From a virus: a stretch of DNA of 12,469 nucleotides. The DNA lies in UHGV virus genome UHGV-0112027; one strand, written 5' to 3'. Within the stretch, counting starts at the first letter, position 1, and every line of letters starts with the position of its first letter. Position numbers and translations under genes: made by a program. Shown here piece by piece: positions 1,447-2,280 of this stretch. A model generated the notes under the pieces. It saw nothing but the letters and a program-made list of their open reading frames with translations, was not told the origin of the DNA and made no database searches.

Positions 1447-1856
1447 GATGCCTCTCCTTTACCGGATGCGGCGGCGATCAGCTTCTGCGCCTGCTGAATG
1501 TCAGGATTGCCTGCAATCATCACTTCTGGCGCGTCACAGTCACCGCCAAGGTCAAGAATGCGCTCATGTCCGGTACGCAGGCAGGATTTGTATCCTGAAA
1601 CCGTCTGCTTGAGCGATTCGGTCAGCACAGCAATCCTCTGGTCTTTGGCTTCCAGCTCATCCAGCAGCGCCAGCACTGTGGCTGGGTTGGCTGCGGAGTT
1701 CAGCGCGTTCAAGGCAGTGATATCTGCATCAAGCTGAGTTCATTCTGCCAGTGAGATATCGAAAATGTCATCAGGCGGCATAACACTAAGGCGCTCATGT
1801 GCACCAACTGCTGCCTCAGCGATTTCACGTAATGCGCGTTTGTCGATGTTGCTCAT
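1443..1856 (-). pseudogene. Ead/Ea22-like gene interrupted by a single in-frame TGA (codon 39, nt 1740-1742)
   Basis: ATG at 1856 gives MSNIDKRALREIAEAAVGAHERLSVMPPDDIFDISLAE, then TGA, then the same frame continues as TQLDADITALNALNSAANPATVLALLDELEAKDQRIAVL... to the stop at 1443. The track ORF 1443..1712 begins at a TTG in that same frame. The ANPA-VLALLDE coiled-coil motif matches my recollection of Ead/Ea22-like proteins. Confidence 0.5.
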
Positions 1857-2083
1857 TCTTCATCCTCCAACTCAGATACGGCGTCCATTACATCTGAGCC
1901 GCGAATGGTTTCGAATGCCACACAAGCCATTTCAAAGCACAGGCGCTCATGCGGGTGCGGAGATTGCCAATACTTGAAGCCAGGACGATGCGAATAGCCC
2001 TGCATCGCATAAAACTCTCCGGCCAATTCAATGGCGGCATCCACCAGTTCACGGTTTGTCATTGGTTTGTCGATGTTGCTCAT
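1853..2083 (-). CDS. Hypothetical small protein (76 aa), N-terminus MSNIDK shared with the neighbouring ea22-like gene
   Basis: ORF with ATG start overlapping the upstream stop (ATGA); translationally coupled chain downstream of ren. Confidence 0.5.
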   Translation of the reverse strand: MSNIDKPMTNRELVDAAIELAGEFYAMQGYSHRPGFKYWQSPHPHERLCFEMACVAFETIRGSDVMDAVSELEDEE

Positions 2084-2280
2084 TGGGCGGCCTCCTGGAT
2101 TAACTTTTCGAGAATGGCATCAAGGGCTTTCCGTTTTCCGATATACCCGCCACCAACCCACTCTCCACGAAGCAAGGCGTAATATTTCCCGTCGTCTTCG
2201 TGATACGGTCCTCGGATAGACCAGTCGGTTGTGATGGCGTCGATAGCCTTTTTAGTTTCTGCGAAATCCATCATGCTCAT
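2080..2280 (-). CDS. Hypothetical small protein (66 aa from ATG 2280)
   Basis: Track ORF 2080..2337; ATG at 2280 lies immediately after the ren stop with GGAGG 8 nt upstream; product MSMMDFAETKKAIDAITTDW... Confidence 0.5.
   Translation of the reverse strand: MSMMDFAETKKAIDAITTDWSIRGPYHEDDGKYYALLRGEWVGGGYIGKRKALDAILEKLIQEAAQ

Follow-up and report, generated by a model that had tools for sequence, protein, structure and literature searches.

The region of interest lies on the minus strand of the window, by which we mean the whole 12,469-nt stretch of the viral genome UHGV-0112027, and comprises a 66-aa gene, a 76-aa gene and an ead/Ea22-like gene. The latter two form a pair that sits after O-P-ren, in the pR 'nin' position. 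The features discussed here, including three plus-strand genes, are listed in Table 1.

Table 1. Features of the window considered in this analysis (plus-strand coordinates; SD, Shine-Dalgarno site).
Feature	Position	Strand	Remarks
Boundary island, ead 3' end	1431-1473	-	tail ..SGKGEAS-stop, SD within GGTAAAGGAGAGG, ATGA overlap, start MSTITKQ of 268-aa gene
ead/Ea22-like gene (Pfam PF13935)	1443-1856	-	profile match E = 8e-24 (internal stop codon masked); in-frame TGA 1740-1742
Conserved island inside ead gene (..NPATVLALLDELEAKD..)	1640-1696	-	95-98% shared with otherwise unrelated ead genes
Downstream boundary block	1838-1868	-	20-mer 1838-1857, GGAGGATGAAGA before it, GGAGG 1864-1868
76-aa gene, cassette cargo	1853-2083	-	phrog_4132; conserved core from Met8 (MTNRELVDAAIELAG..)
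8-nt direct repeat GACAAACC	2053-2071	-	plus-strand GGTTTGTC at 2064-2071 and 2053-2060, 11 nt apart
Upstream boundary block	2065-2096	-	AGGAGGCCGCCC 2085-2096 and 20-mer AATGAGCAACATCGACAAAC 2065-2084
66-aa gene, upstream of block	2080-2280	-	its final QEAAQ-stop belongs to block
Gam	7819-8115	+	Pfam PF06064
RecT/Red-beta-family annealing protein	8121-8906	+	Pfam PF03837
YqaJ/Exo-type nuclease	8903-9583	+	Pfam PF09588

The sequence GTTTGTCGATGTTGCTCATT occurs exactly twice in the window, at 1838-1857 and 2065-2084 (plus-strand coordinates), an identical 20-bp direct repeat as reported in the first-pass annotation. No third copy was found in the window even when up to 3 mismatches were allowed, and a second copy of the 20-mer appeared in 0 of 200 dinucleotide-preserving shuffles. 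Chance as the origin of the pair is rejected. Read on the minus strand, each copy is A-ATG-AGC-AAC-ATC-GAC-AAA-C, and therefore both ORFs start with MSNIDK; the repeat spans the start codon and first six codons, and each ATG overlaps the TGA of the preceding ORF as ATGA (ORF ends/starts at 2080/2083 and 1853/1856), both as originally described. In a repeat search the pair lengthened to 31 nt at 84% identity (1838-1868 / 2065-2095), because GGAGG precedes both copies at equal distance.

The segment bounded by the two copies is a 227-bp cassette whose cargo is the 76-aa gene. At the upstream copy, a Shine-Dalgarno GGAGG lies at 2091-2095; the end of the 66-aa gene, the ATGA overlap and MSNIDK fused to the 76-aa gene are all contained in the block. 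At the downstream copy, GGAGGATGAAGA encodes ..LEDEE-stop, the conserved tail of the 76-aa protein. The ead/Ea22-like gene has its native start in the downstream copy. Of the two genes first described as beginning at the repeat, the downstream one is not intact: 38 codons run from 1856 to the in-frame TGA, after which the same frame continues to 1443. With this internal stop masked, the ORF scored 85.2 bits against Pfam Ead_Ea22 (cut-off 27). Close relatives carry GGA (Gly) at this codon, and the gene is intact in E. coli C8. The NCBI annotation of an identical E. coli S51 prophage records an ead/Ea22-like pseudogene with an internal stop, and identical loci bear the RefSeq name 'ead/Ea22-like family protein'. 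Mutually exclusive inactivation of the ead and 76-aa genes, a hint of a toxic pair, was discarded, as E. coli C8 and locus L089 keep both intact; the TGA, a +1 frameshift and an 11-nt deletion in these genes are independent decay events. Beyond its start, the ead gene carries further short conserved segments (Table 1). The motif ALLDELEA was found in most MSNIDK proteins, and GKGE tails are common among them; a K/RGE C-terminal motif has been noted in Ea22 proteins (PMC7093339).

The 76-aa protein matched phrog_4132 over residues 4-76 (E = 4.8e-37), a PHROGs family of unknown function, and had no Pfam match. Its AlphaFold2 model consists of three helices with a pLDDT of 91.7, in which only about 9 N-terminal residues are of lower confidence; a Foldseek search of the model against PDB gave no fold match below E = 0.39. 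Across 70 homologous clusters of this family the common core begins at Met8, and the leaders ahead of it take more than 30 different forms. The MSNIDKP leader was present only in the 6 clusters closest to the window, plus one MSNIDIP variant. MSNIDKP on the 76-aa gene is thus a lineage-specific graft. The nearest relative without MSNIDK reads ATGAGTAAGCAAC/CAATGACAAA and has its own SD, which stands before the leader ATG and not before Met8, and Met8 was accordingly dropped as the true start of the gene. The graft junction, ..GACAAAC/CAATGACAAACC.., has a microhomology of only about 3 nt. The 8-nt direct repeat comes from the joining of the Ead start (..GACAAAC) to the start of the 76-aa core (ATGACAAACC). 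An 11-nt unit, GACAAACCAAT, occurs in 1, 2 or 3 copies among relatives (1 in LR-62-2; 3 in L138), and with its copy number the reading frame of the gene body moves relative to the MSNIDK start.

We further analyzed the anatomy of the repeat. The 20-mer is the core of a block of about 32 nt, AGGAGGCCGCCC followed by AATGAGCAACATCGACAAAC, which contains the tail of the upstream gene (..EAAQ-stop), a Shine-Dalgarno site, the ATGA overlap and the six codons for MSNIDK, with GGAGG placed 7 nt ahead of the ATG. In the block profile, conservation runs from -12 to +19, positions -12 to -1 being conserved at 62-95%, and the sequence is random beyond -13 and past about +48. When MSNIDKxALRE was scanned for in codon-degenerate form, exactly ATGAGCAACATCGACAAA was used by 87 of the 92 distinct gene starts. 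Synonymous sites hardly varied in codons 2-6 but varied freely in codons 8-11 of these genes; non-majority codons numbered 5 of 460 in the former and 111 of 368 in the latter (Fisher p = 3e-37). Judged from this codon usage, the block is conserved as DNA and not merely as protein. The block also exists in a second nucleotide type, AGTGAGCAAGATTGACTATC, which shows the same uniformity and the same degree of reassortment. Around the upstream copy, the sequence had less structure than 196 of 200 shuffles. An RNA element at the repeats was dropped as a candidate, given that the window contained no Rfam match and no stable RNA fold was found around either copy (z = +2.1 and -0.02). A promoter or terminator was likewise dropped, with nothing above background at either block.

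To describe how the block is distributed, we scanned phage sequence collections. An exact-match scan of IMG/VR returned at least 120 loci, and among the matches listed all 126 occurrences begin an ORF as MSNIDK and span an ATGA overlap. Among cultured phages, 92 records matched the 33-mer. Across phage contigs and cultured phages, the 20-mer, mostly with GGAGGCCGCCC ahead of it, stands at the ATGA junctions of more than 100 different gene pairs, including P22 eaF/eaD, so that its presence at gene junctions of other genomes is clear. The block was found across Salmonella and E. coli phages before many different accessory genes, and ead/Ea22-like genes have these 32-33 nt in front of them in phages CurroJimenez and mEp390 as well as in many IMG/VR contigs. 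In viral contigs it links about 40-60 unrelated upstream genes with dozens of gene bodies. A scan anchored on the upstream half (GGAGGCCGCCCAATGA), in which true blocks were mixed with chance matches in GC-rich phages, was used qualitatively.

The proteins on both sides of the block are diverse. Upstream, 94 distinct proteins fell into 41 clusters, with tails such as QEAAQ, EGAAQ, KGGAQ and similar; downstream, 99 distinct MSNIDK proteins fell into 25 clusters. Four of these 25 have no similarity to Ead, including the 76-aa family and a DUF5448 cluster whose MSNIDKLNDHELVD start matches P22 EaF. Some local similarity ties 90 of the 99 MSNIDK proteins into one mosaic Ead/Ea22 network, and for the genes of this network the block may be no more than a start conserved within the family. 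Comparison of 161 unique contexts yielded 126 pairs with the same body and a different upstream gene, 131 pairs with the reverse and 19 sharing both, while 12,346 of 12,880 context pairs were unrelated on both flanks; as the contexts were chosen for having the 20-mer, breakpoints in these statistics could only fall beside it.

Within the contexts selected in this way, the limits of homology coincided with the block. Loci L017 and L032 are 99.87% identical across 1527 nt up to +26, L114 and L145 are 100% identical across 797 nt from -4, and homology ends at +19 in both L024/L028 and L065/L180. For the window itself, homology of the 66-aa gene with L083, L055 and L068, where other MSNIDK genes come next, ends exactly at 2065. 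Homology of the cassette with L084, L094, L025, L089 and Salmonella phage SW-37 begins at -12 to -17 and ends at or just past the downstream block. The downstream junction after the cassette also occurs in L084, L089, L138, L142 and SW-37. The same ead allele is present in about 50 E. coli genomes, and their homology halts at the block end. Copies of the cassette in other contexts are 85-92% identical, and this difference of 8-15% indicates that the exchanges into those contexts are old. A junction lacking the cassette (66-aa gene, block and this ead allele), such as a deletion between the two 20-mers would leave, was found in 0 of 5,426 complete E. coli genomes, in which all 25 carriers keep the cassette. 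The first-pass annotation had proposed comparing genomes for deletion or duplication polymorphism between the repeats; this search gave no deleted form, and so no evidence of ongoing deletion or insertion of the cassette in this lineage.

Taken together, we regard it as likely that the two 20-mers are copies of a conserved 5' boundary block of the ead/Ea22-like family in P22-like and lambdoid phages, which serves both as a translational-coupling signal and as a crossover point for module exchange. The block lies at gene boundaries, its sequence is kept between genomes with unrelated flanks, and homology limits coincide with it in contexts picked for the 20-mer. The original suggestion of a conserved gene-boundary linker for module shuffling is supported by this distribution, by the conservation at the DNA level and by the homology limits, from which we infer that crossovers would take place within the block. 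The upstream copy would then represent an Ead-type start fused in frame to the leader of the unrelated 76-aa gene. Such a block would provide a ready translational-coupling signal for whatever gene stands behind it, and at the same time a short patch of identity through which general recombination could swap the gene on either side; these two properties would lead to one upstream gene occurring with many downstream genes, and vice versa. Translation efficiency presumably adds to the conservation of the block.

Likely agents of the exchange would be phage annealing proteins of the Red-beta/RecT/Erf type, or RecA; phage recombinases of the Red/RecT type, which the window encodes, probably carry it out. 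The minimal segments for efficient pairing have been given as 23-27 bp for Red-beta and 31-34 bp for RecA (PMC3945230). The full block is about 32 nt long, and the 20-mer alone is under both published minima. At the downstream copy in the window the upstream halves differ, and only the 20-mer, shorter than the Red-beta minimum, is shared.

The main alternative is that the block is a translation-initiation and coupling element only, kept by selection on expression, and that the chimeras arose by random illegitimate recombination filtered by selection, with no preferred crossover site. This would fit the strong SD with its optimal spacing, the ATGA overlap and the unusually unstructured, A-rich start, and also the other gene tails in the window that embed the SD of the next gene (GKGE, QQE, LEDEE). 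Moreover, the sole readable junction in the window (AAC/CAATG) shows microhomology and is not homologous, and no recent deletion between the two copies turned up among the 5,426 E. coli genomes. However, selection on translation alone does not predict the same 32 nt in exact register before at least 25 types of gene body and behind about 41 upstream families, nor flanks of 99.9-100% identity that end a few bases from the block. Codons 2-6 are also far more uniform than expression codon bias usually gives, and the second type, being as uniform and as reassorted as the first, looks like identity by descent spread by exchange and not like convergence on one optimum. We therefore consider this alternative rather unlikely. 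It seems very improbable that selection acts on the peptide itself, with MSNIDK serving different proteins as a functional N-terminus, for instance as a tag for stability, targeting or interaction. Every occurrence among the matches listed is in frame and translated as MSNIDK, and the peptide is present on unrelated proteins, but the near fixation of synonymous sites in codons 2-6 next to variable codons 8-11, and the conservation that reaches 12 nt 5' of the ATG into another gene, are not expected of a peptide. Most members of the 76-aa family are without MSNIDK, which in the predicted model appears as a lower-confidence appendage outside the fold, and the variant with three 11-nt units loses the peptide and retains the gene.

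Two further explanations concern the origin of the pair itself. The first-pass annotation had also raised the footprint of a duplication; if the segment had been duplicated locally in tandem, or if a mobile element had brought in the 76-aa gene with a target-site duplication, this would account for two identical direct repeats around one small gene, and the 11-nt unit beside the upstream copy does vary by slippage. Yet the ead and 76-aa genes match different families and are not paralogues, the BLASTP alignment between them covering residues 1-18 only, six of which are the shared MSNIDK and the rest a weak RE..AA similarity, and the 76-aa family normally has other leaders. No inverted repeats flank 1838-2084 and there is no transposase, the only ORF between the repeats being that of the three-helix protein. 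The 20-mer is single-copy at more than 100 other gene starts, the two-copy layout recurs with other cargo in P22 (eaF) and in L082, and the cassette is old, being present with both its blocks in other contexts at 85-92% identity; all of this contradicts a duplication or insertion footprint and leaves it a scant probability. Equally slight is the probability that a homing (HNH) endonuclease from these accessory regions recognizes the block and that cassettes spread by nuclease-triggered repair. In some prophages and phages the gene directly upstream of the block does encode an HNH endonuclease, but such genes make up only 1 of the 36 upstream protein clusters scanned, and in genomes that carry them the block is exact, while a homing site beside its own endonuclease gene is, as a rule, disrupted or changed.

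The reading of the block as a boundary linker bears on the debate over phage mosaicism, in which exchange at short conserved linkers is set against random illegitimate joins filtered by selection, and in which the main argument of the latter side is that linkers are seldom found. Our comparisons suggest that the block is a clear example of the long-proposed but rarely documented recombination linker, marking the points at which accessory genes are swapped between phages. As a candidate it is concrete and abundant, with defined edges, conservation at the DNA level, hundreds of natural 'recombinants' and a length right at the pairing minimum of phage recombinases, and these properties make the linker question testable by experiment in lambda or P22. 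The block accounts, too, for the many unrelated small proteins with MSNIDK starts that annotation pipelines meet, and N-terminal similarity in these regions is no sign of whole-protein homology.

A bolder and more doubtful possibility is that the block, its 'type 2' sister and the ALLDELEA and GKGE/QQE-tail islands together form a dedicated plug-and-play adaptor system for accessory genes of P22-like and lambdoid phages. The constancy of the block would then stem from a length that just suffices for crossing over by phage annealing recombinases, and any gene between two blocks could pass from one phage to another, or from the pL 'ea' to the pR 'nin' operon and back, to be expressed immediately through translational coupling. 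If true, the system would be a recombinase-independent counterpart, in function, of integron cassettes or of the PeSLs of T4-type phages.

Several known systems resemble the block in part. Short boundary sequences were proposed to allow module swapping through general recombination in lambdoid phages by Susskind and Botstein (1978) and, for HK620, by Clark et al. (2001), as summarized in PMC3029335 and PMC2327257, where the same papers are cited as saying that most mosaic joints have no such sequences. As far as these summaries describe them, the lambdoid linkers and the block are alike in being short gene-boundary sequences with differing flanking genes and preserved gene order, and they belong to the same phage group. 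What sets the block apart is that part of it falls within each of the two coding sequences and that it also supplies the SD and start of the downstream gene. At hkaG, HK620 itself has 'type 2' (VSKIDY) in place of the MSNIDK form. The PeSL cassettes of T4-type phages are short repeated expression signals around non-essential genes in hyperplastic regions, and by recombining with one another they bring about gene insertions, deletions and replacements (Arbiol et al. 2010, PMC2839356; Comeau et al. 2014, PMC4122927). PeSLs combine an expression signal with a recombination site, as the block would. However, PeSLs are intergenic and transcriptional, consisting of a sigma-70 promoter and a terminator hairpin, while the block is translational (SD, ATGA and first codons) and overlaps two ORFs; no promoter-like or terminator-like site and no stable structure of the PeSL kind was found at either block. 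In Cluster I mycobacteriophages, repeats of about 50 bp mediate an insertion/deletion (Pope et al. 2011, PMC3029335). There, too, a short repeat lies at both ends of a segment that is present or absent and general recombination is invoked, but the repeats relate to a single event in one phage cluster, in contrast to the hundreds of contexts and several host genera of the block.

The 227-bp cassette also shares features with integron cassettes (attC/attI), namely a small promoterless cargo, repeated bounding sites and expression signals supplied by the platform. Integrons rely on structured attC sites and on a dedicated site-specific integrase of their own; the block is associated with neither a recombinase nor a structure of this kind, and the likeness is in logic only. 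In the literature searched, we found no mention of the MSNIDK string and no paper naming eaF, eaD and P22 together. The same architecture as in the window is nevertheless present in P22, where eaF and eaD are adjacent early-left genes that both carry the exact 20-mer and MSNIDK, with a spacing of 356 bp. EaF, which shares its start with the DUF5448-matching cluster, is unrelated to Ead, and the second gene encodes the founding Ead protein. Both P22 blocks have variant upstream halves (..GGGCCAGCCC and ..GGAGACAGCCC). The two pairs differ in their cargo gene and in their place in the genome, the P22 pair lying in the pL 'ea' region and that of the window in the pR 'nin' position.

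The window comes from an E. coli lambdoid prophage and covers its early region. In order, the minus strand encodes YdaS-like and YdaT-like proteins, O, P, ren, a 66-aa protein, a 76-aa protein, an ead/Ea22-like protein and a 268-aa protein, and the plus strand carries genes for a cI-type repressor, a DUF6414 protein, Gam, a RecT-family annealing protein, a YqaJ-type exonuclease and Dam. Identity with lambda reaches 99% across P and most of ren and ends ~27 nt before the ren stop codon (2277-2304); the mosaic joint therefore falls within the last ren codons, not at a gene boundary. 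Among 5,426 complete E. coli genomes, 25 carry the entire 1400-2300 segment at ≥98.6% identity. In the window, the ead/Ea22-like and adjacent genes occupy the "nin" position downstream of O-P-ren, in the rightward operon; their homologues in P22, HK620, HK629 and the mEp phages are found near int/xis, in the leftward "ea" region. Five partly palindromic, iteron-like repeats (~22 nt, TTACCTGATTCGGGTAA-type) presumably mark the replication origin. Both copies of a direct repeat (50 nt, 74% identity) contain many TAATAGCAAT motifs, and their positions are compatible with right and left operator regions. The 304-aa DUF6414 protein, encoded where lambda has rexAB, is a candidate prophage-expressed accessory or defence gene.

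Coordinates of the features discussed, in window numbering
Feature	Position	Strand	Remark
Island	640-678		..AAPQQEAK-stop tail
Island	776-815
Island	1431-1473		..GKGEAS-stop tail and start of next gene
ead/Ea22-like ORF	1443-1856	minus
ead/Ea22-like gene and neighbours	1443-2280
CAAGGT duplication (23AR0885)	about 1547		within ead
Island	1640-1696		ALLDELEA region inside ead
In-frame TGA	1740-1742	minus	codon 39 of the ead/Ea22-like ORF
20-mer, downstream copy	1838-1857		start of the ead/Ea22-like ORF
76-aa gene	1853-2083	minus
A insertion in relatives	~1932-1933		within the 76-aa gene
11-nt unit GACAAACCAAT	2053-2071		graft junction
GACAAACC, two copies	2053-2060, 2064-2071		11 nt apart
20-mer, upstream copy	2065-2084		start of the 76-aa gene
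66-aa gene	2080-2280	minus
O-P-ren	2277-4284	minus
End of lambda homology	2304
Iteron-like repeats	3727-3843		inside O
50-nt direct repeat	5111-5160, 7216-7265		flanks the repressor-DUF6414 pair
DUF6414 gene	6116-7030	plus	immediately 3' of the cI-type repressor
Integrase gene	11459-12451	minus

Two exact copies of GTTTGTCGATGTTGCTCATT are present in the window. No third copy was found there even with three mismatches allowed, none of 200 shuffled windows contained a second copy, and a chance origin of the repeat was excluded. Once extended, the similarity of the two copies covers 31 nt at 84%, because GGAGG precedes both at an equal distance. Read on the minus strand, each copy gives A ATG AGC AAC ATC GAC AAA C, the start of an ORF beginning MSNIDK, whose ATG overlaps the TGA of the preceding ORF as ATGA. 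The first-pass annotation had described just this arrangement at two adjacent genes, and its positions and reading frames proved correct. Both genes do begin MSNIDK; as a gene, the downstream frame (1856 to 1443) is broken by an in-frame TGA.

This downstream ORF matches the Pfam family Ead_Ea22 (E = 8e-24). The codon at the TGA position is GGA (Gly) in near-identical prophages, the identical locus of E. coli S51 is labelled in RefSeq as an ead/Ea22-like pseudogene with an internal stop, and E. coli C8, from the same prophage lineage, has both the ead/Ea22-like and the 76-aa gene intact. In 23AR0885, the ead gene contains a 6-nt tandem duplication. The passages searched in a paper on Ea22 describe the protein as highly diverse in sequence, with a coiled-coil region and a K/RGE motif that is common at the C-terminus, and do not mention a nucleotide-level block (PMC7093339).

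The upstream ORF matched no Pfam family and corresponds to phrog_4132, a family of unknown function; in a search of 5.8 billion proteins the family was small (70 clusters). Its conserved part starts at Met8 (MTNRELVDAAIELAG..), preceded by a hypervariable leader of 0 to 14 residues in >30 different forms, and the MSNIDKP leader is confined to the six clusters nearest the window and one MSNIDIP variant. The nearest relative with another leader reads AAGGAGTCGAGC ATG AGT AAG CAA CCA ATG ACA AAT.., which therefore places the window junction at ..ATC GAC AAA C/CA ATG ACA AAC C.. (slash at the joint). The reading frame is kept across this joint, where about three bases of microhomology are present. 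A confident AlphaFold2 model from the family alignment (pLDDT 91.7) has helices at residues 10-27, 44-61 and 65-75 and the first ~9 residues outside the fold; no PDB structures resembling the model were found. Judging from their sequences, the 76-aa and ead/Ea22-like proteins are unrelated past the first residues. The residues after MSNIDK are weakly alike in the 76-aa protein, ead and P22 eaF (PMTNRELVDAAI, RALREIAEAAV and LNDHELVDLK), and eaF and the 76-aa gene have the DNA ..CAATGAC..GAACTGGT in common; this likeness may be fortuitous, the graft may be longer, or an N-terminal helix may be distantly homologous.

The 11-nt unit at the graft junction is present in 1, 2 or 3 copies in natural relatives, and once the copy number changes, the 76-aa gene is no longer in frame with the MSNIDK start. 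With one unit (LR-62-2) the product is MSNIDKP-stop and the 76-aa gene is lost; with three (L138; L-numbers denote compared IMG/VR contigs, phages and prophages) an 11-codon leader ORF, MSNIDKPMTNQ-stop, overlaps the Met8 ATG as ATGA. Several E. coli genomes and IMG/VR contigs from this prophage lineage have a +1 insertion that shifts the reading frame of the 76-aa gene (L002, L003, L096, L102 and L105; G1/2 among carrier genomes). The window TGA, this frameshift and the 11-nt deletion are independent decay events.

Outside the window, an exact-match scan of IMG/VR with the 20-mer returned at least 120 loci. Among the matches listed, all 126 occurrences start an ORF beginning MSNIDK, and nearly all directly follow ..GGAGGCCGCCC. 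Among cultured phages, 92 records match the block in a 33-nt version, with Salmonella, Escherichia, Enterobacter, Citrobacter, Cronobacter and Shigella as hosts. P22 has the exact 20-mer twice, 356 bp apart (2156-2175 and 2512-2531), where the neighbouring genes eaF (MSNIDKLNDHELVDL..) and eaD (MSNIDKQALREEF..) begin, an architecture shared with the window but with a different cargo gene; L082 has a third kind of cargo gene between two copies. Over 104 unique contexts, conservation is 62-95% at positions -12 to -1 relative to the 20-mer, partial as far as roughly +47, through the stretch that encodes ALREAAEKA in typical Ead proteins, and random farther out. The ATGA overlap fixes the stop codon, so that in translation the upstream half of the block becomes the C-terminal end of the preceding gene product. 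There are 41 clusters among the 94 distinct proteins encoded upstream, including DUF977, DUF4752, DUF4406, GmrSD_N, HNH, Lar and DUF551, with tails such as QEAAQ, EGAAQ and KGGAQ. The 99 distinct MSNIDK proteins form 25 clusters; 90 are linked in one mosaic Ead/Ea22 network via shared pieces such as ALLDELEA, and four families lack similarity to Ead. One is the 76-aa family, one matches DUF5448 and has the MSNIDKLNDHELVD start of P22 EaF, and there are two more. HK620 hkaG (start at 3511), HK629 and CurroJimenez have the start in a second nucleotide type, AGGAGGCA(A/G)CC AGTGAGCAAGATTGACTATC (VSKIDY..), which in IMG/VR is as uniform, widespread and reassorted as the MSNIDK type. The string MSNIDK did not occur in the literature searched, which left out Clark et al. 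(2001) and the P22 genome papers.

Because selection on nucleotide sequence was to be avoided, conservation was assessed with a scan for any coding of MSNIDKxALRE. Among 92 distinct gene starts, 87 read exactly ATGAGCAACATCGACAAA, and codons 8-10 vary widely: Ala8 is GCA in 52, GCG in 37 and GCT in 3, Leu9 is TTA in 53, CTG in 26 and others in 13, and Arg10 is CGT in 67, CGG in 15 and others in 10. Non-majority codons number 5/460 at codons 2-6 and 111/368 at codons 8-11 (Fisher p = 3e-37, indicative only because the sequences are phylogenetically dependent). A protein-level tag, which the constant MSNIDK might suggest, is contradicted by this synonymous-site pattern and by conservation that continues upstream of the ATG; the leader would also lie outside the modelled fold. 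A role in translation alone would account for the sequence conservation. The block reads as a good translational-coupling signal: it contains GGAGG, a 7-nt spacer and the ATGA overlap, and its start region is unusually unstructured (z = +2.1). However, a role in translation alone does not explain why the register is exact with dozens of unrelated partners, why near-identical flanks stop at the block and why there are two discrete nucleotide types. Roles in recombination and translation may both contribute to the constancy of the block.

In 161 unique contexts, 126 pairs have a common gene body (≥90% identity) behind unrelated upstream genes, 131 have a common upstream gene with unrelated bodies, and only 19 have both in common. 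In gapped alignments, L017 matches L032 at 99.87% over 1,527 nt up to a limit 7 nt past the 20-mer, L114 and L145 are 100% identical over 797 nt from an onset 4 nt ahead of it, and homology in L024/L028 and L065/L180 stops at its last base. The 66-aa gene is 88-94% identical to L083, L055 and L068 up to exactly 2065, where other MSNIDK genes follow. Elsewhere, at least five further upstream genes precede the 76-aa cassette (in L025, L084, L089, L094 and Salmonella phage SW-37), which is 85-98% identical there, or 85-92% over the full cassette; its homology begins 12-17 nt ahead of the upstream 20-mer and ends in the downstream one or ~14 nt past it, or in L089 runs on into the same ead allele. 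The window ead allele itself is found at 92-94% behind other genes in ~50 E. coli genomes, with homology stopping at the block end. Further islands of 38-49 nt are 92-98% identical to otherwise unrelated phage contigs, and the ..GKGEAS and ..AAPQQEAK tails contain the Shine-Dalgarno site of the next gene; the MSNIDK block therefore appears to be one among a set of boundary islands in the region.

The first-pass annotation had proposed either a linker at gene boundaries for module shuffling or the footprint of a duplication. The feature is real, and its presence at many junctions, the DNA-level conservation and the homology limits at the block support the linker. The two genes are not paralogous, inverted repeats and a transposase are lacking, and the 20-mer occurs elsewhere in single copy, all of which contradicts a tandem duplication or a transposon footprint. 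A homing-endonuclease site, for which an upstream HNH gene might speak, finds little support because HNH makes up only 1/36 upstream clusters.

In the proposed origin of the arrangement, the downstream copy would simply be where ead natively begins. Genes of the 76-aa family are often found directly upstream of ead (HK629, L084 and L089), and their conserved tail ..LEDEE-stop provides GGAGG and the ATGA overlap. The upstream copy would have arisen when an Ead-type start with the upstream half AGGAGGCCGCCC was joined in frame to the 76-aa gene's leader in a non-homologous event, the doubling of GACAAACC being a coincidence of the join. Once between two blocks, the cassette could move by exchange inside them, which fits its presence in several contexts. 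According to PMC3945230, the shortest segments that pair efficiently measure 23-27 bp with Red-beta and 31-34 bp with RecA, and Rad52-like phage recombinases are described as dominating exchanges on short or diverged homology (PMC3945230, PMC2327257). The full block (~32 nt) is at these limits and the 20-mer alone below them; genes for Gam, a RecT-family protein and an exonuclease are present in the window. A cassette-less junction was absent from the 5,426 complete E. coli genomes, which, together with the 8-15% divergence of cassettes elsewhere and the shortness of the 20-mer relative to the pairing minima, argues against recent activity of the two window copies.

Susskind & Botstein (1978) and Clark et al. 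(2001) proposed a "short conserved boundary sequence" model, summarized in PMC3029335 and PMC2327257, with which the block agrees: it has the defining features that were tested, with a length of ~32 nt that leaves no clear margin over the pairing minimum and with crossovers inside it that we infer from sequence comparison. Like the PeSL cassettes of T4-type phages, as described in PMC2839356, it combines an expression signal and a recombination site in one; it falls outside that class because promoter, terminator and stem-loop are absent. The finding leaves current ideas standing and offers a tractable natural system in which to test linker sequences as drivers of phage mosaicism. The block is an unusually well-populated case of an already known kind of element, not a new kind.
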